A stretch of 64,000 nt of DNA from Candidatus Bathyarchaeia archaeon (GCA_050010515.1 JBEKKX010000009.1:1-64000), one strand, 5' to 3'. Counted from the first letter of the stretch, positions 29,062 to 42,158 are shown. Numbers and translations are program-made. The notes: generated by a model from the letters alone, not told the origin.

Positions 29062-30582
29062 TTACATGTAGAATCGATATTCTGGTCGTGGAATTACTTC
29101 TTCAGGCACGTAAGCAAGAATTCTGCCGACCTCGCTAGCATACTCAAGAGTAATTGGGCTTCGAATGCAAAAGTCAGCACTATTCCAATTCATCTTTGTT
29201 AAAGAGAAAACTTCTTCACAAATGGTTTCTAACGATGCATCTCCATGATGCTCAACTATTTCTATAGGTGTTGGAACCCTTAGTCCTGGATATGTTTCGA
29301 GATAACGTGAATAGCCCTTAGTGTAAAGAAGATAGTTAGAAGTTCCCAACTGAACAACTGTTCCTCTTAAAGGTGGATAAATGCCTTTTCTCCGCATGAA
29401 TCTAATCCCCCGAGTTTCAATTGTAATAAAATCTTTAAGTTGGACACTTTGTGCCCCTGACTGGAAACCTTGCAGTTCATCTGGTTTATACCTAGAAGTT
29501 TTGTGCACAACAATTCTTCGGGGAAGTTGATGCATTTGATTATCGTATTCTTTTAGAACATCGACTATTAACTGACGTGCGCCCTCTTCCGTTAAATGAG
29601 GCGAGCCTGTTGTATAATCAAGAACTGCACGACTACCTTTGAGAACCAAACCTTCTCCTGTATAAGTAAAAACCTGAGCTACGCTTGACCTCATATCACC
29701 TTTGGAATTTGGCGGGTCTTTGTAGAAAGATACTCCGACGTAGCAAGTTCCGTTCTCCATACTAGCTAATTTCCAAGGATATCCTTCAGCTTTGTAATAT
29801 GTAGCTACCGCAAAATTCCACGCACGTGTGGCTGCATCTTGGAGACTTGGGTCAGAATTATCTGTCTTAAAAGTCCTAGGTCTAGCAAGCTGCGTAGGGA
29901 TATTAAGCATCATTGCTCCAGCCTTTATCAAACGACGAAGATTGCTGGCTTCATAAGTTCCTTCGATATCTTCTTCCTGAAACGGAACTAAGGTTTGCTG
30001 ACCAGTCTTACGGTGATTCCGAATCATGTCAATAATGTCTTTCTCTTTCTTCGTAAGTTTAACCCTTGCAGAAGAATCTCCTTGCTGTTCGGTGGAGCAG
30101 CAGTCCAATATTTCCTTAGGCAATGCACAGACAACAACTTGGGGATGTGGCTCTCTTCCCAAGTAATTTGAGAGTTTTCTAATAAACAAGTTTGCTGCTT
30201 CTTTCACTCTCTGTTGATAGTCTGCAACATTTAATATTGCCTTGATTTCATCGCTAACAATTAGCTCTATGCATTCTTCCTTTACCCGCAACTCGCAACC
30301 AAATACTTTTGTAAATCCTGGGAATTTTTGGAAGAGTGAAGAATTCTCTTTCTTAGCTGGAATTTCTCCTTGGCATTTTTGAACCCATTCTTTACATTGG
30401 TCGATTGTTTCTTTTGTCCCAACAATGCCCAATCTTATTGAAGAGGCAATAGCTCTTCTATTTTCATATAAACAAGGACCATAAGCAACCAACCCTTTTT
30501 TTGGGTCTATGTATCGTTTTCCATCTCCAAAAGTTAACGAAGGTTCATTTATGAAAATTGACCTGAAACATTTTGTTGGCAC
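29062..30582 (-). CDS. Short prokaryotic Argonaute (MID-PIWI, catalytically inactive)
   Basis: EPSLTFG, DPKKGLVAYGP, IPTQL, WNFAVATYYKA.GYPW, CYVGVSFY, VVHKTS, RGT, LTKMNWN, PITLEYA; no DEDX tetrad. Confidence 0.93.
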   Translation of the reverse strand: MPTKCFRSIFINEPSLTFGDGKRYIDPKKGLVAYGPCLYENRRAIASSIRLGIVGTKETIDQCKEWVQKCQGEIPAKKENSSLFQKFPGFTKVFGCELRVKEECIELIVSDEIKAILNVADYQQRVKEAANLFIRKLSNYLGREPHPQVVVCALPKEILDCCSTEQQGDSSARVKLTKKEKDIIDMIRNHRKTGQQTLVPFQEEDIEGTYEASNLRRLIKAGAMMLNIPTQLARPRTFKTDNSDPSLQDAATRAWNFAVATYYKAEGYPWKLASMENGTCYVGVSFYKDPPNSKGDMRSSVAQVFTYTGEGLVLKGSRAVLDYTTGSPHLTEEGARQLIVDVLKEYDNQMHQLPRRIVVHKTSRYKPDELQGFQSGAQSVQLKDFITIETRGIRFMRRKGIYPPLRGTVVQLGTSNYLLYTKGYSRYLETYPGLRVPTPIEIVEHHGDASLETICEEVFSLTKMNWNSADFCIRSPITLEYASEVGRILAYVPEEVIPRPEYRFYM

Positions 30583-30584
30583 TA

Positions 30585-31886
30585 TTATACAACCCCGTCC
30601 TCAGAAATCCCAACAAGCATAAGCGTTCCTGCTGGATTGGTATCAATTTCAATGGTGTTATTTCCGAAAGGAACACACAATTTAGTATCGAGTTTTGAGA
30701 GAAATTTTGCCCAAAATCTAACTGAACTTAGATATGAACTGTTATACTCTTTAGATAAATAACGGCTCATCAAGGAAGCGAGTTTTTCTTTTCGAATAGG
30801 CTTAATTCCGTCAGACGTGAATACTTTGGTTGGTTCTATTTTCAGAAAAAGTGCTTCGTTTATGTACATAAAGTTCAAGCTTGCTGCATAATGAACGCAA
30901 AAGATCACTTGTCCCTCTTTGCAAAAGGCTCTTGCAACTCTGCGTTCAACATACTTTGTTTTAGCTCGCCAACCAAAGACATAGTTTTTTCCTTCCTTAA
31001 GAAGGCAAATAAATCTATCATGGTCTCGGTCATAGCGCATGTTTCTTTTTCTGCAATACTTCTCCATAGCGAGATTAAGCAAGTAAATGATGTCGTTTCT
31101 GCTATCTTCATTTTTCAACAATTCAGAAGTGTTTTCTTCAGTAACCTCTCTTTTGTCTATTATTGGCGCAAAAATTGAAGAAGGGTCAGTTAAGTTATCA
31201 AACGTATAGAGTTTTCTGTTCTTAGGAAGAAAAGGGTGCTCCTCTACATCTGAGCCTAACTTCTGAAAAACTTGATTAACTCTTCTCAAATAAGTGGGAC
31301 TCGAATAAAGGGTGGGTGGTAAACTAATTATTGGAAAGAGATTTGACACCAAGTCTTCTTCTTTTTTATCTACGGGTTTAGGTTCAGCTAATACTTCTTC
31401 AGAAGCTTTTCCTATTATTTTGCCGTACTTCTGGACGTGTTCAACTAAATTTAGTACAATCTCTTTAAACTCACTTTCCACATATGAGCCGTCTGAAAGC
31501 ACCCTTTCACCATCAATTAATTCTCCATGCATGGCAACCCCAAATTTCCGCTGAGCAATTGCTCCCTTTTCAAATATTCTTTGGCATTTAGCATCTGCTA
31601 ACAGCTTGGGGTTTGCCACGACAATTTTGATATTTGCATCGGAATTTTGAACCAAAAACATATCTCTATAAAAATTCTGAAGGGATGCAGACCAAATTAC
31701 TTCGATGCATATGCTAATACCATCTTGGGTCATTGCCAAAATGTCTAGTTCATGACCTGACGACGGATATTCTTGTAATGAGGCACCTGTCCATTTTCTG
31801 AGATAATCACTAAGAATACCCTTTATTCTTTTATGCTGCTCGGATTCTGAAGAAGACAATTGCAGGTCACTTTGATTATTAATCAA
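30585..31886 (-). CDS. PD-(D/E)XK-like nuclease-APAZ fusion (short pAgo partner)
   Basis: C-terminal LVSNLFPI..LP.TLY / HYAA / LKIEPT.VFTSDG / EYNSSYL.VRFW typical of APAZ; N-terminal ESEQHKRIK...E...LDI...CIEVIWS. Confidence 0.8.
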   Translation of the reverse strand: MINNQSDLQLSSSESEQHKRIKGILSDYLRKWTGASLQEYPSSGHELDILAMTQDGISICIEVIWSASLQNFYRDMFLVQNSDANIKIVVANPKLLADAKCQRIFEKGAIAQRKFGVAMHGELIDGERVLSDGSYVESEFKEIVLNLVEHVQKYGKIIGKASEEVLAEPKPVDKKEEDLVSNLFPIISLPPTLYSSPTYLRRVNQVFQKLGSDVEEHPFLPKNRKLYTFDNLTDPSSIFAPIIDKREVTEENTSELLKNEDSRNDIIYLLNLAMEKYCRKRNMRYDRDHDRFICLLKEGKNYVFGWRAKTKYVERRVARAFCKEGQVIFCVHYAASLNFMYINEALFLKIEPTKVFTSDGIKPIRKEKLASLMSRYLSKEYNSSYLSSVRFWAKFLSKLDTKLCVPFGNNTIEIDTNPAGTLMLVGISEDGVV

Positions 31887-32436: not shown

Positions 32437-32838
32437 CTAAATCAATTCAAGCATGCTTTGAACTGTAATTATCCTAATTCCCTTGTAATCCTGTAAAGCT
32501 AAAAGATGTTTGTCTCCCGTCACAATTATGTCGGCGTTTCCATCGTAAGCTGTTTCAATAATCATATCGTCTTTGGGGTCTTCTTTGACTGCCTTGAGCT
32601 TTGACTTCACATTTATAACATCGGCTGATCGTTTCAGCGCATTAATAGTCTCTTTGATTTCCGCATTGGTTGTTTTGAGTTGCGGTCGACTAAGTACACT
32701 GACAAGCTCCTCCAAAATTAAGTCAGAAGTAACAATGGCAAATCGGTTCGCCAATCCTCGTTGGAAAAGCTCTCTTGATTTGCCGTTGGAAATTGTGGCG
32801 CTCACCAAAACGTTGGTGTCAAGAACGACCCTGAGCAT
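32437..32838 (-). CDS. PIN-domain (VapC-like) toxin
   Basis: VVLDTNVLVSA, DPKDDMIIETA, IVTGDKHLL. Confidence 0.92.
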   Translation of the reverse strand: MLRVVLDTNVLVSATISNGKSRELFQRGLANRFAIVTSDLILEELVSVLSRPQLKTTNAEIKETINALKRSADVINVKSKLKAVKEDPKDDMIIETAYDGNADIIVTGDKHLLALQDYKGIRIITVQSMLELI

Positions 32839-32851
32839 GTAATCATCTTAG

Positions 32852-33124
32852 TTATTTGCGGTGGCGCTCTTTTCTAACTTCTGAAACTATCTCTTGGATT
32901 TCTTCCTCTGAAATGTTTAGATGTTTTTTGTCCATCATTTCAAAGATGTGGTCCCATTCTTTTTTTATGTCAGGGAGTTCGAGCTTTTTGAGTATGATGG
33001 TATCGCCTTTGCCGTAGACGAGGAACTTGTTTTTCGGTTTTATTTTAAGCTGTTTTCTTATTGACTGCGGGATGACTACTTGCCCTTTTTCGCTGATTGT
33101 GGTTACTTGTGGTTCTTCGCTCAT
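32852..33124 (-). CDS. AbrB/MazE-family antitoxin
   Basis: TTISEKGQVVIPQSIRKQLKI; directly upstream of the PIN gene. Confidence 0.9.
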   Translation of the reverse strand: MSEEPQVTTISEKGQVVIPQSIRKQLKIKPKNKFLVYGKGDTIILKKLELPDIKKEWDHIFEMMDKKHLNISEEEIQEIVSEVRKERHRK

Positions 33125-33243: not shown

Positions 33244-33431
33244 TTGAAAAAGTCGTTTCTGCGATTGTTTAATAGGTGAAAACAGTCGATTCTGCTATTC
33301 TTAGTATGTTGAAAAAGCATTGTTTCATGTTGAAAGTGCGGGACGTTTCGTCTATGTTGAACTATGTTGAATCATATTTGGCGTCTATTAGGAGCATCTA
33401 GTAGACTAGGAGGGTAGCTTGTGCACACACA
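33244..33431 (+). repeat. Left copy of ~190-bp imperfect inverted repeat with four ATGTTGAA boxes
   Basis: Reverse-complement match to 38686-38870, including the exact 24-mer TGAACTATGTTGAATCATATTTGG. Confidence 0.9.
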
Positions 33432-33723
33432 TAAACGGGCACCTGACCCTGACAGGTTAATCGCTATGGAATGGCGAATAATGCGTGACATGAAGAAGAT
33501 GCTCCGTGACACTAACCTTTCAGTTGCAGAGAGGACACGGTTGGCAAGTGCCTTGGGTTACCACGCAACCGTTCTAAACAAGTTGCTCAATCAGAAGGGG
33601 GAGGCGGCACACTTTAATGAAGCAACATTGGGCGATTTTATCAGCGATATTGATAAAAGCGCACGAACTCTGGTGAGAAGGGATTTTGAGGTTTGGACGA
33701 GAAAGCTTTCCTTGAAAAAATAA
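33421..33723 (+). CDS. Small helical protein upstream of TerL (possible terminase small subunit)
   Basis: 100 aa, overlaps the TerL start; assignment is positional only. Confidence 0.5.
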   Translation: MHTHKRAPDPDRLIAMEWRIMRDMKKMLRDTNLSVAERTRLASALGYHATVLNKLLNQKGEAAHFNEATLGDFISDIDKSARTLVRRDFEVWTRKLSLKK

Positions 33724-35162
33724 CCAGCAACCTATCATTCGCCGCCTCAATATGTGAAGATTTACTGCAGAGGCCAACAGCGTTAAGGCAATTGCTCGCC
33801 CACAAAGAAGTTGCCAGCAAACTTATCGCTGACCCCGTCTTTTTCGCCGTTTTAATGTGCGGGGACAAATGGCTTATCGAGGCACCTGAACATCAGAAGC
33901 TTCTTCGGGATGTAAGCCCGAGGCAAGTGGCGGTTTGCGGTCGGGGATGGGGCAAAAGCTTGGTTTTCAGCAGAAAAAACCTCTGGCTCCTATACACTAA
34001 GCCCAAAGTTGAAAGCCTCATCATAAGCAGCACCCAACGCCAATCCATGATAATGTTTGATTACTGCTACTTCACCATCCTAGCTAACCCGCTTCTAAGG
34101 CAGATGGTTCAGAGACCTGGAACAACCCGCACAACCATAAAGCTCAAGCCTCCGCTGGGTGGAAAAATCGTTGCCCTGCCATGCTCAAAAGACAAGCTCA
34201 GAGGCTACCATCCAGACTACGTCTTCATAGACGAAGCATCAATTGTCCCAGGCGAAATGATAACAAGCGAAATAATGATGATGCTCACAAAACCAGGCGC
34301 AAGCCTAGTCATGAGCGGCACACCCATGGGCCAAGACCACGTTTTCCGCAAAGCCTTCCTGGACACAAAACGCTACAGCGTACACCACTACGCAAGCTAC
34401 CAAAGCCCACTTGTCAGCCAAACGCAACTGGACGAATGGAAAGAAGTAATGACAAAAGAAGAATGGCAACGCGAAGTCGAAGGCATATGGATAGAAGCAA
34501 CCCACACATTCTTCCCCATGGACCTAATCGTAACCTGCGTAGACCCAGAGCTAGGCAACCCAGACTCGCCAAGCACCTACATCGAAGACATCGAAAAAGT
34601 CACGCCCCATCAGAAACTCAATGGACCCTATTACGCGGGATTAGACCTTGGCAAACAAGTCGACTACAGCGTGCTTGCAGTGATTCAGAAGAGCTACAGC
34701 GGCGAGCTGAGGCTGGTGCATAAACGCCAGTTTCCCTTGGGCACAAACTACCCCCAAGTCATCGGCTACATAGCCAGAGCGCAGCAGGTGTTCAACTTTG
34801 AAGGTTTATACGTGGACAAGGGCTGCATAGGCGACGCCGTTATCGATGAACTAAACAACATCTACATACCCGCCGTTGAAGGCGTTTTCTTTACAGACAC
34901 GGAAAAAGAGAATATGCTAAACAACCTTAAACTGCTCATGGAAAAGAAACTCCTCAAAATAGCAGGCGACGACAAAACCCTAATCGCTCAAATCAACGAA
35001 CAACAATACGAGTACCTGCAGCCTAAAACGGCTCAAGAACGAATCCACCTCAAATTCTGGCACCCACACGGAAGACACGACGACCAACTAATGGCTCTAG
35101 CACTAGCATGTAAAGCAGCCACAAACGCGGCACCGCCCGGCGTCGGCGCCATCATTCTCTAA
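33693..35162 (+). CDS. Terminase large subunit (ATPase plus RNase H-like nuclease)
   Basis: Walker A GRGWGKS, LRG, Walker B YVFIDEA, SGTP, nuclease GLDLG..DYS, VD, HDDQLMALALA. Confidence 0.92.
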   Translation: MDEKAFLEKITSNLSFAASICEDLLQRPTALRQLLAHKEVASKLIADPVFFAVLMCGDKWLIEAPEHQKLLRDVSPRQVAVCGRGWGKSLVFSRKNLWLLYTKPKVESLIISSTQRQSMIMFDYCYFTILANPLLRQMVQRPGTTRTTIKLKPPLGGKIVALPCSKDKLRGYHPDYVFIDEASIVPGEMITSEIMMMLTKPGASLVMSGTPMGQDHVFRKAFLDTKRYSVHHYASYQSPLVSQTQLDEWKEVMTKEEWQREVEGIWIEATHTFFPMDLIVTCVDPELGNPDSPSTYIEDIEKVTPHQKLNGPYYAGLDLGKQVDYSVLAVIQKSYSGELRLVHKRQFPLGTNYPQVIGYIARAQQVFNFEGLYVDKGCIGDAVIDELNNIYIPAVEGVFFTDTEKENMLNNLKLLMEKKLLKIAGDDKTLIAQINEQQYEYLQPKTAQERIHLKFWHPHGRHDDQLMALALACKAATNAAPPGVGAIIL

Positions 35163-35216
35163 CAGTAACCTGCATCGCAAAAACTAAAATCAAAAAATAA
35201 AGAAGAGGGAGGCTAA

Positions 35217-36005
35217 TTAGCTTACTTCGTTATTTTCGATCTTTCTAGCCATTTCAGCAATTATCTTTGTGAACGGATGGTCAGGTTTATCTGTGACAAA
35301 TATCAAGTTGCCTTCAGCTCTTAGGATTTCGCAGAAACAAGGCACGATTCCCAGCATGGGCACGTGATAAACAGTTTTTACTTTGTTGCTCATTTCGGCT
35401 TTCTTAGCTGTAGCTGATGAATCAAGCACTTTGTTTAGCACAAGTCCCGTTTTCTTCTCAAACAAGTTATACAGCTCCACTAGCATTCGTTTTGTTCCGT
35501 CCACATCGGAGCGGTCACCAGTTGTTGCCACAACCACGAAGTCAGCGGCTACAATAGCGTTTATTGAGGAATACTGCAGTCCTGGGCTTGTGTCAAAGAA
35601 CAAGTAATCAAACTTTTGATTCTTAAGCAATGTTTCCCTAAGGGCAAGCAGCCTTCCTAAAGCACGCATTTCCCATTTTCTATCCTTTCCAGACATGTCT
35701 CGGATTGCTTCAGTTGCAGGGTTTGCTAAGCCAGCGAAAAACTTGCCGTTTCCAGGAATCCTGCTGCTTAAATCTACAAGAACTTTTTCGACGTCACAGG
35801 TATTGTTTAGGTAATCGTTAAGCCAGCATTCGACGTTTTCAGCTTTCAGAATGGAGAACAAGCTTGGTGCCCGAAAATCAAGATCAAACACAGCAACTTT
35901 CTTGCCGTTTTTAGCCAAAGTAGCTGCTAAGTTTAAGGAAAGAAGCGTTTTTCCCGTTCCGCCTTTATATGAATGTACAGCGATTATTTTGCTCATAATT
36001 TTCAA
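35217..36005 (-). CDS. MinD/ParA-family ATPase
   Basis: SYKGGTGKT, DLDFRAP, FDTSPG, LNKV. Confidence 0.9.
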   Translation of the reverse strand: MKIMSKIIAVHSYKGGTGKTLLSLNLAATLAKNGKKVAVFDLDFRAPSLFSILKAENVECWLNDYLNNTCDVEKVLVDLSSRIPGNGKFFAGLANPATEAIRDMSGKDRKWEMRALGRLLALRETLLKNQKFDYLFFDTSPGLQYSSINAIVAADFVVVATTGDRSDVDGTKRMLVELYNLFEKKTGLVLNKVLDSSATAKKAEMSNKVKTVYHVPMLGIVPCFCEILRAEGNLIFVTDKPDHPFTKIIAEMARKIENNEVS

Positions 36006-36409
36006 CCCTGCGTTTCCCTATCAACAAAAAAATAGGCTTTTCTTCCCTTACGCTCCTTCTTAAGGTAACCCATAATCACCAGCTGATTAAGATACGCACT
36101 TTCCACAGCTCTAGCCCGACTTGTCTGCTCAGCAATCTCCTCAGCAGTCGCCCTTGAACACCTACAAATCGCCATAGCTGTTTTCCGCAGATGATCCGGC
36201 ATAGAAAGAAGCGTCATAACATCTAAAGAAGCATCAGGCAACGTTATAGCCGACCTCTGGCCGCCACTACCGCTCTTCTGAATCTCAATTATAACCTCCA
36301 TCTTCTGATTCAACCTCTCAAGACTCTCCTCAATTTTCTCAAGTATCGTAATCGGTTTTCTAGCCAATACTTCATCCTTAATCACAAATCCCTCCGACGT
36401 GTCTTGCAC
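36002..36409 (-). CDS. Winged-helix DNA-binding protein coupled to the ParA/MinD gene
   Basis: ATAEEIAEQTSRARAVESAYLNQLVIMGYLKKERKGRKAYF. Confidence 0.8.
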   Translation of the reverse strand: MQDTSEGFVIKDEVLARKPITILEKIEESLERLNQKMEVIIEIQKSGSGGQRSAITLPDASLDVMTLLSMPDHLRKTAMAICRCSRATAEEIAEQTSRARAVESAYLNQLVIMGYLKKERKGRKAYFFVDRETQG

Positions 36410-36584
36410 ATATACAGTTGGTAGTTTAATCCAAAAGCTATTTATTAAGTCTTACGAAACTTTACTACTTATTTGAAACAACTAAACTATAACATTAATA
36501 TTTAATGAGAGCGGAGTGCGGAATGGTAAAACGGGTAATGTGTAATATAATTTGTTTTTAGGGGAAATGTGGAAGTTGTGGGTT

Positions 36585-36878
36585 TTAGTAGGGGATTGCT
36601 GTTTGGTTTCGTGCTTCCTCTACTATGGGTAGGACTTGTTTTAGTTCTTTGAAGTATTTCAGTACTGTTATGCCTCGTTGTGTTACGGCGTAAACTACGC
36701 GTTGTTTTCCTGCTGTGCGTTCTTCGACCAGGCCTTGTTTTATGAGGAAGTCAAGGTATTCTTTTAGGACGCTGCAGTTAACGTTTGCTTTATACATGAC
36801 GTGTGTTAGTTTTAGCGGTCCTCTGTGAGCGAGAACCGAAAGGATGTCAACATACATTTCTAGTTTTGAACGGCGCAC
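36585..36878 (-). CDS. Archaeal winged-helix transcription regulator (COG3432-like)
   Basis: MRRSKLEMYVDIL...THVMYKANVN...Y.VT.RG. Confidence 0.85.
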   Translation of the reverse strand: MRRSKLEMYVDILSVLAHRGPLKLTHVMYKANVNCSVLKEYLDFLIKQGLVEERTAGKQRVVYAVTQRGITVLKYFKELKQVLPIVEEARNQTAIPY

Positions 36879-36963
36879 TTTTTACTCCTCTTTTTTATTA
36901 AACTCATTTTTTATTATAAATCTTTTATGTATTACTAATCAACATTTTTGTCCATGAATGCAG

Positions 36964-37182
36964 TTAATTATCAGCTTTTCTGCTTGCTCGGTTTAACACA
37001 TTTAACCTGTTTTCGAAGGCTGTGACCATGTCATCTAGCAATATTTCACGCAATTCTGTCGGCAATTGACCCATTTTTTCTTGGAAAACCCTCTCTAGCT
37101 TAGCTTCTAGTTCTTTCCTATCTTTTTCTGCAATTTGTTTCATACACTTTCCTCCAGATTCCAATTTCAATGGAACACACAT
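36964..37182 (-). CDS. Small hypothetical protein
   Basis: Charged helical ORF; likely start at the internal ATG after GGAGGA. Confidence 0.5.
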   Translation of the reverse strand: MCVPLKLESGGKCMKQIAEKDRKELEAKLERVFQEKMGQLPTELREILLDDMVTAFENRLNVLNRASRKADN

Positions 37183-37984
37183 TAGCGAATGCTATTTAAC
37201 TAACTTATGAAAGCAACCTATGAATCTAAAATAAATACCTAAAAACAAAACTGCTCCGTTCTTTCTGCAACCTTTATGTGACCTACGAGTTTTCTCATCT
37301 TAACTGGACTGCTTAGCTTTCAAGTAGCTATTTTTAGGCTTAGGTTCTATTGCAAAAGCTAAGGAATAAGAGAAAAATAAATTATTGTATACAATCATTG
37401 CTACATACATATTGTTTTGAACTGTTGCTTTTGTATCGCAATCACAAATTCATTTGAAGCTCAATGTGCATTTCCTAACGGCGGCAGTATTACCGCGCGT
37501 CCAAATGATTGTTTTATCGGAGTGTTTTTTTGTTGATTCCAGGCTCTTTTAAGATTAAATCTTGGAGCGTCCTACTTAGCAAAGGGTACATTTTAAATAA
37601 TCAAGTCCGGGCTGAATACTGTGAAAATTGCAATTCAACAAGTGAAGTTTTAACAACCAACTTTAACAATCCTAACTTATTGTTGTATAGCTGCAAAAAC
37701 AGCAAATGTAAACACAGGCTTTTACGCTTGAATTTTAACGATAACACATAGCGTTTGACGAAAAAAGCATGGTTTAAAATGAACCGAGAAGTGTAAGCGG
37801 CAGCAAAACGGTGACATTTTCAAATTACCAAAAACACTGTTACCGTGTGCTCCTAGTCCGTATCCTTTTTAATTCTCTAGACTCTAAAATCTGCTAATTA
37901 ATTCGGGTGATTTAACCAGAGCTTCACTGCTTTTTGGAGTGTACCCCCGCTGTTCCCTCAAGCCTTTGTTGGGAACTTTAATTT

Positions 37985-38263
37985 TTATGCGATGATTGCC
38001 ATTCCAGTTGGTTTTGTTTGAGAGCCATAAATCAGCAGAGACCATTGGTCTTCTTTTAAAATCATTCCACGTTTATTTACAATAGATTGCACGTTCATGA
38101 GACTTTTGACATCGAGAGAGACGTTTATTCGAAGATCAAATTCTTCTTTGGAACGGTTGCTTGGCGTTAGCGATATACTACTTATGAAAGCGTCTGGTAC
38201 ACACTTACATATTTCGCTCAAAAGCCGGGCTGCCTCGCGCCTTCTCATTACGCTGCCTCGCAA
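37985..38263 (-). CDS. Hypothetical protein
   Basis: 92-aa ORF with plausible composition. Confidence 0.5.
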   Translation of the reverse strand: MRGSVMRRREAARLLSEICKCVPDAFISSISLTPSNRSKEEFDLRINVSLDVKSLMNVQSIVNKRGMILKEDQWSLLIYGSQTKPTGMAIIA

Positions 38264-38685
38264 ATTGTATTGTAATATTGCTTAAGCTTATGAGAATTAC
38301 TCTCAAGCTCAAGTGAAAAATGGCAGACAAACGCTCTACAAAATGCATCATTTTTAACACATTTCCATGGCAAGATTGTTCAGAAACAAATTAACGTAGA
38401 TACCTTACAATATTATTATAAACCTGCATAACTCAAGCGATTGTATTGTAGTTATTCGACAAAAAAAAGTCCTAACTGATCTGCTGATTTTAATACAAAA
38501 AAATATTCATAATACTTTTGACAGGTAATCGTTAAGTAAAAGTTGAGCCTTTACATCAAACTTGCATGGAAGTTTAAGTCTTCCCGTTTATACAGTTTAA
38601 AATGGAGTTTGATGGGGGCGTGATCAGGTTCTATAAAATTAATATTTTGTATGTTTTTAGTTCTTGGCTTTTGTTTTAGGGTATT

Positions 38686-38870
38686 TGTGTGTGTACAACC
38701 TACCCCCGGGTCTACTATATGCTTCTAATATGCCCCAAATATGATTCAACATAGTTCATCATAGAATTAATGCGCGCACTTTCAACATGAAATGATGCTT
38801 TTTCAACATACGAGAATTGCAGAATCTACTGTTTACGCCTAATAAACCATCGCAGAAAAGCACTATTCAA
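38686..38870 (-). repeat. Right copy of the ~190-bp inverted repeat, ending in a truncated copy of the small-gene start
   Basis: Matches 33244-33431; minus-strand TTG TAC ACA CAC AAA (MYTHK) mirrors GTG CAC ACA CAT AAA (MHTHK) and stops after 13 codons. Confidence 0.9.
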
Positions 38871-39077
38871 GGTTGATATAAGCAAGCAAAAAGAAACGTG
38901 CACTAAACAGAAAGAAAAACCAAGAGCAAATATAAACAATTTTTTTTTAAAAAAAAGGACAAAGAATATTTAAGAAAAATTAGGCTTTGCCCTGGCGATT
39001 ATAATATTGAGCCTGATGCTTGGACAAACAGTATACCTTCAGGGTACCCGGCTCAGGTTCGAGTTGAATGGAACGAA

Positions 39078-39749: not shown

Positions 39750-39947
39750 ATGAGAGAACCAGAAGAAATAAAAAAAGACTTGGAAGCCATTCGTGCTGAA
39801 ATGAAGAAACGGTCTCCTAATTCAGGAAAAGCATCGGTACAAAAAAAGTTTGATGAATTGTCAAAGAAAGACATCGAGTTAGAAAAAGAACTCGTTGAAT
39901 CTTTAGAACAAAAATATAAAATGAAAAAGAGCTCGGTATATCTTTAG
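39750..39947 (+). CDS. Small coiled-coil hypothetical protein
   Basis: ATG start, E/K-rich. Confidence 0.45.
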   Translation: MREPEEIKKDLEAIRAEMKKRSPNSGKASVQKKFDELSKKDIELEKELVESLEQKYKMKKSSVYL

Positions 39948-39967
39948 AACAAAAATATAAAATGAAA
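39899..39967 (+). repeat. 28-bp perfect direct repeat
   Basis: ATCTTTAGAACAAAAATATAAAATGAAA at 39899-39926 and 39940-39967. Confidence 0.9.
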
Positions 39968-40864: not shown

Positions 40865-41590
40865 TTAAGGTGCAATCTCCATTGTTGCCGAGGTAGATTG
40901 AGTCATCTGTACCGTAATGCCGCTTATATTAACAGTCAGATCTGCCAAGTTGACGTTTATACTTGTGGCTGCGGGGTTTTGAGTTTGGAAGGCGCTTTCA
41001 GCGCTCGGCGCCCAAGTAAAGACGAGGTTTACGGTAACCGTCTGCGCGGCACCCATGTTGACAGAGCCGACGAATACAATGGTCCCCAACGGGGTATTGT
41101 TGTTTCCTGAATTGTTATTGTTATTGTTGTTATTGTTGTTATTGTTGTTATTGTTGTTATTGTTGTTATTTTCTGGGCTTGGTGTCGCCGCAGTTGGGGC
41201 GTTGTTGTTGTTATTATTGTTGTTATTGTTATTATTGTAGTTATTTGAGTTGTTGTTGTTATTGTTGTTATTATTATTGTTATTGTTGTTGCTGCCGGTC
41301 GTGACGGTGGCGTTCAAAGAGTACAATGTCACACTGAAATTAAACGGATTCGTGAGTTGGATGGCAAAAGTGTTTGTGGGCGAAGCGCTGGAGACTGCTA
41401 TGTTGCTTGAGATGAAGTTGTCGTTTCCTGAACCGCTATTGCTTGAACCGAACGATCCAATTATCTGTTTTATCTGTGGAGGGACAACCATCTGGACGAG
41501 GTTGTTTCGGTAAGTTATTCCGACAACTGCAAACGGCGTCAATAATGTGAGGACGCTGACTAAAACCAATATGATCCTGACCTTCTGCAT
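40865..41590 (-). CDS. Membrane-anchored LEA2/WHy-like protein with poly-Asn insertion
   Basis: N-terminal TM, LTNPFNFSVTL motif, three Asn tracts. Confidence 0.6.
   Translation of the reverse strand: MQKVRIILVLVSVLTLLTPFAVVGITYRNNLVQMVVPPQIKQIIGSFGSSNSGSGNDNFISSNIAVSSASPTNTFAIQLTNPFNFSVTLYSLNATVTTGSNNNNNNNNNNNNNNSNNYNNNNNNNNNNNNAPTAATPSPENNNNNNNNNNNNNNNNNNNNSGNNNTPLGTIVFVGSVNMGAAQTVTVNLVFTWAPSAESAFQTQNPAATSINVNLADLTVNISGITVQMTQSTSATMEIAP
41096..41291 (-). repeat. AAC/AAT trinucleotide tracts encoding poly-Asn
   Basis: Runs of about 14, 12 and 20 Asn codons; (ATTGTTGTT)x5 on the plus strand. Confidence 0.95.
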
Positions 41591-42080: not shown

Positions 42081-42158
42081 TGGTGCGGTCGCCGAGATTT
42101 GAACCCGGGTCGTCAGCGTGGCAGGCTGATGTCCTAGACCAAACTAGACTACGACCGC
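42081..42158 (-). tRNA. tRNA-Gly(GCC), CCA encoded, no intron
   Basis: GCGGTCG acceptor stem, anticodon arm TCAGC-CTGCCAC-GCTGA, GGTTCAAATC T-loop, ACCA end. Confidence 0.97.

Follow-up and report, generated by a model that had tools for sequence, protein, structure and literature searches.

Why should a viral DNA-packaging gene pair stand alone in the chromosome of a Candidatus Bathyarchaeia archaeon, enclosed by two inward-facing copies of one repeat? The window (the whole stretch of 64,000 nucleotides that was analysed) contains a gene for a terminase large subunit (TerL) overlapped by a small upstream gene, and the first-pass annotation read the repeats as the ends of a terminase-centred mobile element or packaging hijacker, with a domesticated terminase for chromosomal DNA transfer as the other choice. 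We favor a different answer, to which we assign a probability of about 60%, namely that two separate things overlap at this locus: repeats of a family of miniature inverted-repeat transposable elements (MITEs), and a virus-derived packaging pair that is retained for its action on related viruses. The features on which the argument turns are collected in Table 1.

Table 1 Features of the locus, in positions of the window.
Feature	Position	Strand	Remarks
Short prokaryotic Argonaute and REase-APAZ-type partner, neighbouring defence genes	29062-31886	-	506 aa and 433 aa
PIN toxin and AbrB/MazE-type antitoxin pair	32437-33124	-	immediately upstream of left arm
Left arm, upstream control region of the small gene	33244-33431	+	
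Distal box	33244-33300	+	conserved upstream of orthologues
Segment homologous to MITE core	33305-33431	+	no MITE terminal repeats
Small gene	33421-33723	+	100 aa, GTG start at 33421, TerS position
terL	33693-35162	+	489 aa, ATPase plus nuclease, every motif intact
ParA/MinD-like Walker ATPase	35217-36005	-	262 aa, convergent with terL
Winged-helix protein, weak TrmB-like match	36002-36409	-	135 aa, 4-nt overlap with ParA start
HTH_45/Sso10a-family winged-helix protein	36585-36878	-	97 aa
Stretch of about 600 nt with a 92-aa ORF (37985-38263)	37905-38500	-	
Right arm, complete MITE of the long sub-family	38649-38937	-	289 bp, both terminal repeats

The description of an intact TerL overlapped by a 100-aa gene was borne out by the open reading frames (ORFs) and by Pfam and PHROG matches. 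The 489-aa product matches Pfam Terminase_6N above the cut-off (7e-6) and the terminase large subunit family phrog_2 (3e-36), and a profile of 22 orthologues matches the solved TerL nuclease 5m1f (1e-10, residues 310-472) and the solved ATPase domain 4zni (4e-6). Walker A (82-89), Walker B (178-183), GTP at 209-211 and the acidic nuclease residues D318, D375, D381, D385, D463 and D464 are invariant in 22/22 sequences. Judged by its sequence, the protein has the predicted N-terminal ATPase, with Walker A, Walker B and coupling motif, and the C-terminal RNase-H-fold nuclease of a TerL, but the portal and capsid genes that would accompany it in a virus are absent from the window. Pfam searches of the 75 window ORFs of at least 70 aa detected no portal, capsid, tail or integrase family anywhere in the 64 kb, in agreement with the earlier remark that other virion genes are missing, and no recombinase, whether integrase or transposase, was present among these ORFs.

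Of 42 orthologous loci, 40 had a called small gene, in every case on the strand of terL and upstream of it, with an overlap of ~31 nt (31 nt in the window); this is the position expected of a small terminase subunit (TerS), directly upstream of terL and co-transcribed with it. Its product has no sequence match in Pfam, NCBIfam or PDB, and its only PHROG match is to a family of unknown function (0.003). The AF2 model (pLDDT 87.8) consists of four helices, and a Foldseek search of this model against PDB and BFVD returned nothing at E<=0.001. The small protein is therefore not recognisable as a TerS by sequence or fold.

Gene calls and family matches also confirmed that a ParA/MinD gene and two winged-helix genes lie between the arms. 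The 135-aa winged-helix protein is a possible DNA-binding partner of ParA. ParA/winged-helix genes accompany terL in only 6-7 of the 42 loci, ParA being linked to it in the window's own sub-lineage only (6/42), and these genes are probably lineage-specific neighbours outside the terminase module. The stretch that follows them, at 37905-38500, is conserved at 76-95% nucleotide identity across seven genomes of the genus.

The imperfect inward-facing inverted repeat of ~190 bp is real. Positions 33244-33413 and 38703-38870 align in three collinear segments that are 81-95% complementary, and blastn between the arms gives 176 nt at 84.7% identity (E 7e-48 against the whole genome). When the repeat was searched by blastn against the whole 2.38-Mb genome (G000), 35 copies were found, which share a core of about 125 nt and all lie between genes. 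Six of these copies are 226-234 bp long and carry both terminal repeats; an 8-bp target duplication is perfect in two of them, matches at 7/8 positions in one and at 6/8 in another, and is absent in two. In the nearest relative, G042, full-length copies measure 220-231 bp, 4 of the 11 fetched have a perfect 8-bp duplication, and the terminal 23-mer has 19 matches, 9 of them perfect. Across the two genomes, some further copies have nearly perfect duplications. Three sites filled in G042 correspond to an uninterrupted empty site in G000 (L131, L136, L140), and three more have a near-empty counterpart there (L132, L133, L139). Aligned without gaps, the terminal inverted repeat matches at 23/32 positions in copy C32 and at 16/32 in the right arm. 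The full-length members are thus MITEs, non-coding elements of ~230 bp with terminal inverted repeats and 8-bp target duplications, and the family has recently been mobile in the genus, where 4 of 18 sampled congeners, and about 10 of 60 in a second sample, carry it in multiple copies.

MITEs are a known general class of prokaryotic elements, which the present family resembles in size, lack of coding capacity, terminal repeats, 8-bp duplications, dozens of copies, and filled and empty sites. It differs in that many copies lack terminal repeats and in that an autonomous partner was not found in G000: paired ends enclosing a longer element were absent from that genome, and terminal-end matches in G042 and G004 were unpaired, although draft assemblies often lose insertion-sequence copies. 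A further difference lies in the inner part of the element, whose homology is to a viral terminase operon, from the promoter through the 5' region to the first codons.

The last point explains the arms. The right arm as first delimited (38686-38870) sits inside a complete MITE, whose flanks, AAAAAATT and AAAATATT, are identical at 7 of 8 positions. The left arm is the native promoter and 5' region of the small gene and has no insertion ends. Its proximal segment carries four ATGTTGAA boxes and 11-mers arrayed at intervals of one helical turn, together with a Shine-Dalgarno-like box (GGAGG) and the GTG start codon. The first ~60 nt of this arm are conserved upstream of orthologues, including that of G013, a genome in which no repeat copy was found, and orthologues of other sub-clades, like the viral contig L035, share its proximal part, namely the 11-mer array, the ribosome-binding box and the start region. 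The MITE core directly precedes the small gene in L046, L077 and L082. The similarity of the arms reflects the presence, within the MITE family, of a copy of the terminase operon's control region, the inner part of the element being homologous to the distal box, the ATGTTGAA boxes, the 11-mer array, the ribosome-binding box and the first codons. From the wider distribution of the control region, we infer that the sequence passed from the operon into the MITE.

These observations bear directly on the proposal that the arms bound a discrete mobile element of 5.6 kb, whether a transposon centred on the terminase, a segment that can invert or a satellite of minimal size. In its favor, the arms do face inward, and the similarity between them extends ~50 nt beyond what either shares with most other copies. 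L077 has a similar inverted arrangement and G042 part of one, the genome shows a mild excess of inward-facing pairs within 7 kb (3 observed versus 0.78 expected, P 0.04), and TerL carries an RNase-H-fold nuclease. However, the arms belong to a dispersed family of which only 1 copy in 35 abuts a terL; the core of each arm is closer to copies elsewhere (88-91%) than to the partner arm (about 85%); and the "extra" 50 nt also occur in C39 and C33 as well as in several other genomes. Element-specific terminal repeats with an outer target duplication were not found, since the arms are of a genome-wide type and only the right arm has ends and a duplication of its own. Furthermore, the window lacks an integrase or transposase, homology among orthologous loci stops at the TerL stop codon and not at a repeat, ParA and winged-helix genes are inconstant companions of terL, and the other two inward-facing repeat pairs in the genome enclose unrelated, ordinary genes. 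We regard this proposal as very improbable and already largely refuted. A regulatory or recombinational role for the arm pair is possible, given the recurrent inverted layout and the mild enrichment.

The unit that is conserved is the gene pair. The homologues of TerL number more than 500, and over 120 of these share 72-100% identity with it; the contigs involved reach 1.27 Mb. Both genes were called in 39 of the 42 loci examined and form a tight clade, and in 1263 of 1476 ordered locus pairs nucleotide homology ends between -100 and +50 of the TerL stop. The neighbours of the pair vary, and virion genes are almost always absent nearby: within about 8 kb, the chromosomal loci searched contain no portal, capsid, tail or integrase gene, Pfam scans of seven orthologous loci gave no virion family, 142 flanking proteins gave no head, tail or connector match in PHROGs, and tblastn with the tail proteins of L035 found no match in any chromosomal locus. 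In dozens of other Bathyarchaeia species, too, the two genes form a cassette of their own, and the chromosomal regions that hold it are variable and rich in defence genes. Its association with defence genes (the Argonaute and PIN/AbrB genes in the window) is anecdotal. Type IIG R-M, VapBC, TIR and AbiEii genes were seen at other orthologous loci, and a paralogue on contig C6 is adjoined by Pbe/Dnd-like genes. Neither the small protein nor TerL matched any family of PADLOC-DB 2.0.

Where the pair came from is indicated by two IMG/VR viral contigs, L035 (77% identity) and L109 (70%), in which the small gene and terL follow tube, Neck1 and tail genes. The two contigs fall within the clade of 40 rows, in a quick-search tree with SH-aLRT support only. 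Since these nested orthologues close a tail-gene operon, the pair is virus-derived. A more distant TerL family in G014 has the identical gene order with an integrase nearby, and related proviruses have the pair close to their integrase end. In head-tailed viruses and proviruses of Bathyarchaeia, the place of the pair is the end of the tail-gene operon.

Such an origin would also fit a simple relic of a prophage, the few genes left over from a decayed head-tailed provirus and now without function. A single deletion could isolate a pair that lies near the integrase end, and some copies are indeed broken, with 7-8 stops in G058 and truncations in G012, G055 and L073. The first-pass annotation had named close homologues in complete proviruses together with decay of this copy as one outcome that would overturn its reading; close homologues exist, beside tail genes and at 70-77% identity, in two viral contigs, but the window copy shows no decay. 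Against the syntenic copy in G042, terL has a dN/dS of 0.079 (dS 0.66, dN 0.05). Over 31 syntenic pairs, a comparison that speaks to chromosomal selection only within sub-lineages, the median is 0.075 with a range of about 0.05-0.12 and a maximum of 0.124. For the small gene, the median dN/dS is 0.25. Because two viral rows are nested in the clade, viruses could have donated some of the chromosomal copies recently and independently, and the low dN/dS across the clade may stem partly from evolution inside viruses. Nevertheless, low values between copies sharing a chromosomal context, the presence of both genes at nearly all loci and invariant TerL catalytic residues argue against a remnant, as do the lack of intermediates with leftover head or tail genes in the chromosomal loci searched and a TerL G+C content that tracks that of the flanks (r 0.61, 39 loci), which fits long residence. 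We consider a functionless remnant improbable. The pair is intact and under strong purifying selection while standing alone, which is compatible with the suggestion of a domesticated terminase. On the sequence evidence, the best reading is that of an exapted, selectively maintained viral packaging pair, and probably not of a mobile element bounded by repeats or a prophage in decay.

Terminase matches are commoner than portal matches in this lineage. G000 encodes three TerLs versus one portal and one capsid gene, both of which lie beside another TerL on contig C29; Phage_tube_2 had no match in G000, Pfam being of limited sensitivity for archaeal virion proteins. Across the genus, TerL-like matches occur in 52 of 61 genomes and portal matches in 15 of 61. 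The cell would retain the pair for its action on related head-tailed viruses, and most likely the pair would cut or compete for viral DNA or procapsids during infection, a form of packaging interference. It is less likely that the pair would use viral capsids to move host DNA.

The latter idea can be put in a stronger form, in which the cell's terminase loads host DNA, or an element containing the pair, into the capsids of an infecting or resident virus. A complete, conserved ATPase-nuclease motor with a partner but no capsid genes of its own would suit such helper dependence, and potential helpers exist in related viruses of the same lineage and in the C29 provirus with its portal and capsid. 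The upstream ATGTTGAA boxes and 11-mers resemble protein-binding arrays, and MITE copies of them are present at 35 chromosomal sites. However, there are no integrase, replication or att features to define a satellite, the C29 provirus has a TerL of its own, and only 3 of the 13 genus genomes with the orthologue show any portal match. Co-occurrence of MITE and orthologue is not strict either, as the repeat occurs without the orthologue in G016, G003, G046, G067 and G048 and the orthologue without the repeat in G013, G059, G069, G034, G010 and G070. Helper-dependent packaging is thus an unlikely explanation. A more specific conjecture, which we hold to be a long shot, is that the arrays are a pac-like recognition site of the terminase, copied by the MITE to about 35 places, from which the host terminase packages DNA into the procapsids of a related virus. 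If this were true, the virus would be starved of capsids while host DNA was exported from many origins at once, and a packaging-site system dispersed by a transposon would combine anti-viral interference with transduction of the gene-transfer-agent kind in an uncultured archaeal class.

Known packaging systems resemble the retained pair only in part. In gene transfer agents, the genome retains head and tail genes whose particles the terminase fills. The pair resembles those of the RcGTA type in that virus-derived packaging genes are kept by the host under selection, but the only portal and capsid genes found here belong to a provirus with its own TerL; head or tail genes depending on the present terminase were not found in G000. 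The phage satellites PICIs, cf-PICIs and PICMIs encode packaging functions; each integrates as a discrete element equipped with an integrase, modules for regulation and replication, and att sites. The pair shares with them packaging genes set apart from a full virion gene set, whereas its conserved unit comprises two genes only, with no integrase, regulation, replication or att features. In pac-type phages such as P22 and SPP1, the small-terminase gene contains or adjoins the packaging site, and short repeated boxes likewise lie upstream of and overlap the start of the small gene here, although these may equally be promoter or operator elements. With the terminase (TerS-TerL) of archaeal head-tailed viruses (Caudoviricetes), including those of Bathyarchaeia, some examples of which appear in bioRxiv 10.1101/2023.08.24.554615, the pair shares the TerL family, its motifs and a small overlapping upstream gene. 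It differs in having no virion or integrase genes in 64 kb, yet being kept by selection. The locus would accordingly offer a case of a viral packaging pair retained in an archaeal chromosome, intact and under selection without capsid genes.

The terminase gene that the first-pass annotation placed inside an inverted repeat belongs to a virus-derived two-gene packaging cassette. Many Bathyarchaeia species carry this cassette in conserved form, under constraint and away from virion genes. The genome of the window, G000, comprises 2.38 Mb in 66 contigs (completeness 98.5%), and the window, on contig C9, is ordinary archaeal chromosome with genes for family-B DNA polymerase, aIF1A, aIF2-beta, RIO kinase and several aminoacyl-tRNA synthetases. 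Homologues of the large subunit, TerL, number more than 500, with more than 120 at 72–100% identity, on contigs of up to 1.27 Mb. Of 61 genus genomes, 13 carry an orthologue with an identity of 67% or more, full-length and intact in 10 of them, and 52 carry more distant TerL-like genes. We compared the neighbourhoods of 42 loci: the window, the IMG/VR viral contig L035, and 40 of 58 retrieved loci, kept at an identity of at least 64% over nearly full length; the remaining 18 comprised 7 fragments and 11 paralogues whose identity was no higher than 48%. Gene calling recovered the small gene in 40 of these loci, TerL in 40 and the two together in 39; in the called loci the small gene is always 5′ of TerL, in the same orientation, and overlaps it by ~31 nt. 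ParA and winged-helix genes accompany the pair in only 6–7 of the 42 loci, and nucleotide homology between loci stops between −100 and +50 of the TerL stop codon in 1263 of 1476 ordered pairs (39 loci). Just 3′ of terL, 21 of the 42 loci carry a gene that we call F2 (~138 aa, range ~115–160 aa; for example L023:8468-8851), convergent in 19 and absent from the window, which gives a weak RelB/ParD-like NCBIfam match (9e-4) and falls with unnamed virus clusters at 0.90 in the protein atlas.

The absence of virion genes around TerL in 64 kb, noted from sequence alone in the first-pass annotation, was borne out: a scan of the 75 window ORFs of 70 aa or longer matched no family of portal, capsid, tail or integrase proteins. 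Pfam likewise found no virion family in the flanks of seven orthologous loci, which hold housekeeping genes together with type IIG restriction-modification, VapBC, TIR, AbiEii and P-type ATPase genes. A PHROGs search of 142 of 207 listed flanking proteins returned no head, tail or connector match; the 65 proteins left out were hand-picked and comprised the 8 longest, ParA homologues, some short ORFs, all rows of L059, L064, L066, L067, L075 and L079 (five of these loci are the same records as Pfam-scanned loci), and the window's own six proteins, which other scans covered. By tblastn, the tail proteins of L035 matched viral contigs and a provirus on G000 contig C29 only. G000 encodes three TerLs against a single portal gene and a single capsid gene, which both adjoin the C29 TerL, and portal matches occur in 15 of the 61 genus genomes and in 3 of the 13 with an orthologue of the window's TerL. 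The C29 locus (G000:C29:7500-29000) is a canonical head-tailed provirus-like cluster, in which a small gene and a TerL 35% identical to the window's are followed by portal, cement-like and major capsid proteins and, further on, by gp10-like and other tail-region genes. The third TerL (40% identity; C6:65000-75315), which has its own 145-aa upstream gene, lies at the end of a contig, directly after genes for PbeA, PbeC, a Schlafen/AlbA_2 protein and a DndB/DpdB-like protein, and forms with its upstream gene a further terminase pair within a defence island.

Features of the window around the terminase pair
Feature	Position	Strand	Remarks
Short prokaryotic Argonaute and upstream REase-APAZ-type partner	29062-31886	-	506 aa, PADLOC pAgo class I 6.5e-155; 433 aa, 2.9e-42
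Left arm of the inverted repeat	33244..33431		
Small ORF	33421-33723	+	100 aa
TerL	33693-35162	+	489 aa; 31-nt overlap with the 100-aa ORF
ParA/MinD ATPase	between 33.2 and 38.9 kb		convergent with TerL
Two winged-helix genes and small ORFs	between 33.2 and 38.9 kb		
Stretch with 92-aa ORF	37905-38500		~600 nt; 76–95% nucleotide identity in 7 genus genomes
Complete miniature inverted-repeat transposable element (MITE) holding the right arm	38649-38937	-	289 bp
41-nt tandem duplicate	39882-39963		90% identical; within a 65-aa ORF 3′ of the right arm
241-aa predicted protein	40865-41590	-	two very long asparagine runs; adjoins a 221-aa membrane protein and tRNA-Gly
tRNA-Gly	42081-42158		

Upstream of the repeat-flanked segment in the window lie a PIN/AbrB pair and then the short Argonaute with its partner, in a position that is a variable defence slot, given that the nearest relative, G042, has different genes there. 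PADLOC gave no match for the small protein/TerL pair. Near the right arm, the conserved stretch with the 92-aa ORF could be a conserved small gene or RNA; genome G003 carries a homologue of it, and no terL orthologue of the window's clade was found in G003.

The possibility, raised in the first-pass annotation, that this TerL copy is decaying under relaxed selection is contradicted by its intact motifs and by a dN/dS of 0.079 (dN 0.052, dS 0.656) against the syntenic G042 copy. All 22 TerL sequences compared keep every ATPase and nuclease motif unchanged, and the median dN/dS (Nei-Gojobori) is 0.108 for TerL (76 pairs with 0.05<dS<1.5) and 0.248 for the small gene (97 pairs). In 46 locus pairs with at least two flanking gene families in common, 31 of them with usable dS, TerL dN/dS had a median of 0.075 and a maximum of 0.124, indicating that constraint acts while the pair is in a chromosomal, virion-less context. 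TerL has a G+C content of 0.494, compared with 0.39 in its flanks and 0.426 in the genome, and TerL G+C correlates with flank G+C across 39 loci (r 0.61). The small protein gave a confident model of four helices, with no recognisable relative among known small terminase subunit (TerS) families or solved folds, and fold searches of PDB and BFVD yielded no match passing E≤0.001; in the protein atlas it falls in unnamed Bathyarchaeota and virus clusters only, plus DUF8136 at 0.91. It is a TerS by position only.

The inverted repeat itself is real, aligning as three collinear segments of 81–95% identity or as 176 nt at 84.7%. In a blastn search of G000, either arm matched 35 places on 27 contigs through a common core of ~125 nt. 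All 35 copies are intergenic, mostly beside housekeeping genes; the next gene runs with the repeat in 16 cases and against it in 19, which led us to reject the reading of the repeat as just a shared promoter of the downstream gene. A conserved micro-ORF after the repeat's start codon was also rejected, as the frame varies across copies (judged by eye on the alignment). In Rfam, tRNA-Gly alone exceeded gathering cut-offs in the window, and loosening the thresholds for the right arm brought up matches at chance level only, so the repeat corresponds to no known RNA family.

The repeat family is a MITE. One sample of 18 congeners includes 4 with multiple copies, another of 60 includes ~10 in which the family is present, and one sub-family has conserved terminal inverted repeats. 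Six G000 copies measure 226–234 bp, with an 8-bp flanking duplication that is perfect in two (AAAAATGA, AATGATTG), 7/8 in one, 6/8 in one and absent from two. The terminal 23-mer occurs 19 times in G042 (9 perfect) and 5 times in G004, and was not found in G003, G016 or G046. Of 11 G042 copies fetched, 10 have both ends (220–231 bp), the 3′ end of the other (L133) was not found, and four carry perfect 8-bp duplications (ACTTCGTG, TAATTAAG, TATTTTTC, ATCGAATT). For three G042 copies (L131, L136, L140) G000 has the uninterrupted empty site, and for three more (L132, L133, L139) a near-empty one. The nine perfect 23-mers in G042 and the several insertions absent from G000 indicate that the MITE has been active since the two species split. 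No autonomous insertion sequence or longer element with these ends was found.

These observations bear on the two arms, which the first-pass annotation placed around a possible terminase-centred mobile element. The right arm lies within its own complete MITE, with both ends and flanks AAAAAATT / AAAATATT; a copy occupies the equivalent site in G042 (by genome alignment) and in G004 (by genome-search matches), so the insertion looks old. MITE ends are missing from the left arm. In orthologues at five other loci, including one from G013, where no repeat copy was found, the arm's first ~60 nt are retained 5′ of the small gene; beyond this the arm is homologous to the MITE core and carries a ATGTTGAA array and an 11-mer array. 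The part nearest the small gene, comprising the 11-mer array, ribosome-binding box, start codon and first codons, is common to orthologues of other sub-clades and to L035, and L046, L077 and L082 also have the MITE core directly 5′ of their small gene. The ~50 nt that make the arms look paired are shared with copies C39 and C33 and with several further genomes, and in the core each arm is 88–91% identical to copies elsewhere, closer than to its partner. We infer that the MITE interior derives from the 5′ region of the terminase operon, which would explain the match between arms without any element boundary; the MITE family would then have been built around the control region of the cassette. 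No terminal repeats around the cassette were found, homology stopping at the TerL stop codon.

With the 35 copies placed at random, 3.1 pairs are expected within 7 kb where 6 were counted (P 0.09), and 0.78 inward-facing pairs where 3 were counted (P 0.04). The two other inward-facing pairs in G000 enclose unrelated ordinary genes. L077 shows the inverted layout again and G042 shows part of it, a recurrence that vertical inheritance explains, because these loci and the window have flanking genes in common. The window is present, whole or in part, in 20 DNA metagenome runs (peat and wetland), with no RNA runs listed. Contigs from four runs break at both arms, where summed depth is ~5–15 times that of the flanks; these contigs, which cannot show absence, contained no arm-to-arm, inversion or excision joint. 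Taken together, the finding is real as an observation and the claim of a repeat-bounded element is wrong.

Viral orthologues of TerL occur in two IMG/VR contigs, L035 (77%) and L109 (70%), both with the order tube, Neck1, tail genes, small gene, TerL; in L109 an ABC-ATPase/GNAT gene comes next. In a quick maximum-likelihood tree (46 rows, SH-aLRT support), the two nest at different places within a 40-row orthologue clade with a long stem and short inner branches, L035 falling in a 17-row clade (SH-aLRT 95). The first-pass annotation had proposed phylogeny and neighbourhoods as a check on proviral homologues: orthologues beside tail genes do exist in these two contigs, and the chromosomal loci scanned are without virion genes. 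A distant TerL family (26–28% identity, ~482–490 aa), sampled on contig C1 of G014 (L124–L127) and in G005, G050 and G060 (L128–L130), is present in most genus genomes with up to 5–6 matches in one complete genome; no virion genes were seen beside L124, L125 or L128–L130 among the neighbours scanned. In G014 this family shows the same order through to the ABC-ATPase, with an integrase nearby, and orphan-looking copies too.

Bathyarchaeia are abundant, uncultured archaea of sediment and peat, and their viruses are barely known. An intact stand-alone cassette under strong constraint in dozens of species suggests recurrent host use, as packaging-interference defence or DNA export, and we favour a possible role in conflict with related viruses. 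A MITE around a viral operon's control region would offer a direct route for spreading a virus-derived promoter or binding array through a genome. The case also cautions that two inverted repeats flanking mobile-looking genes can match because both belong to a dispersed family whose members happen to lie close together.

We found no published description of a stand-alone Bathyarchaeia terminase cassette, and the phrase 'orphan terminase' was without match; the term 'terminase' is absent from two archaeal defence and dark-matter surveys, and the accessible portions of Bathyarchaeia virus and MAG papers hold nothing relevant to a stand-alone terminase. According to the available parts of the published accounts, which do not mention stand-alone terminases, TerL adjoins the portal gene in a Bathyarchaeia virus, and a 46.8-kb provirus carries a terminase. 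The order tube, Neck1, tail protein, small gene, TerL, ABC-ATPase was observed here in Bathyarchaeia (pro)viruses of three TerL clades (L109, L035, L039, L042, L126, L127), the ABC-ATPase often being fused to, or followed by, a GNAT acetyltransferase, with an integrase near L126. In those (pro)viruses the terminase stands at the end of the tail operon rather than ahead of the portal.
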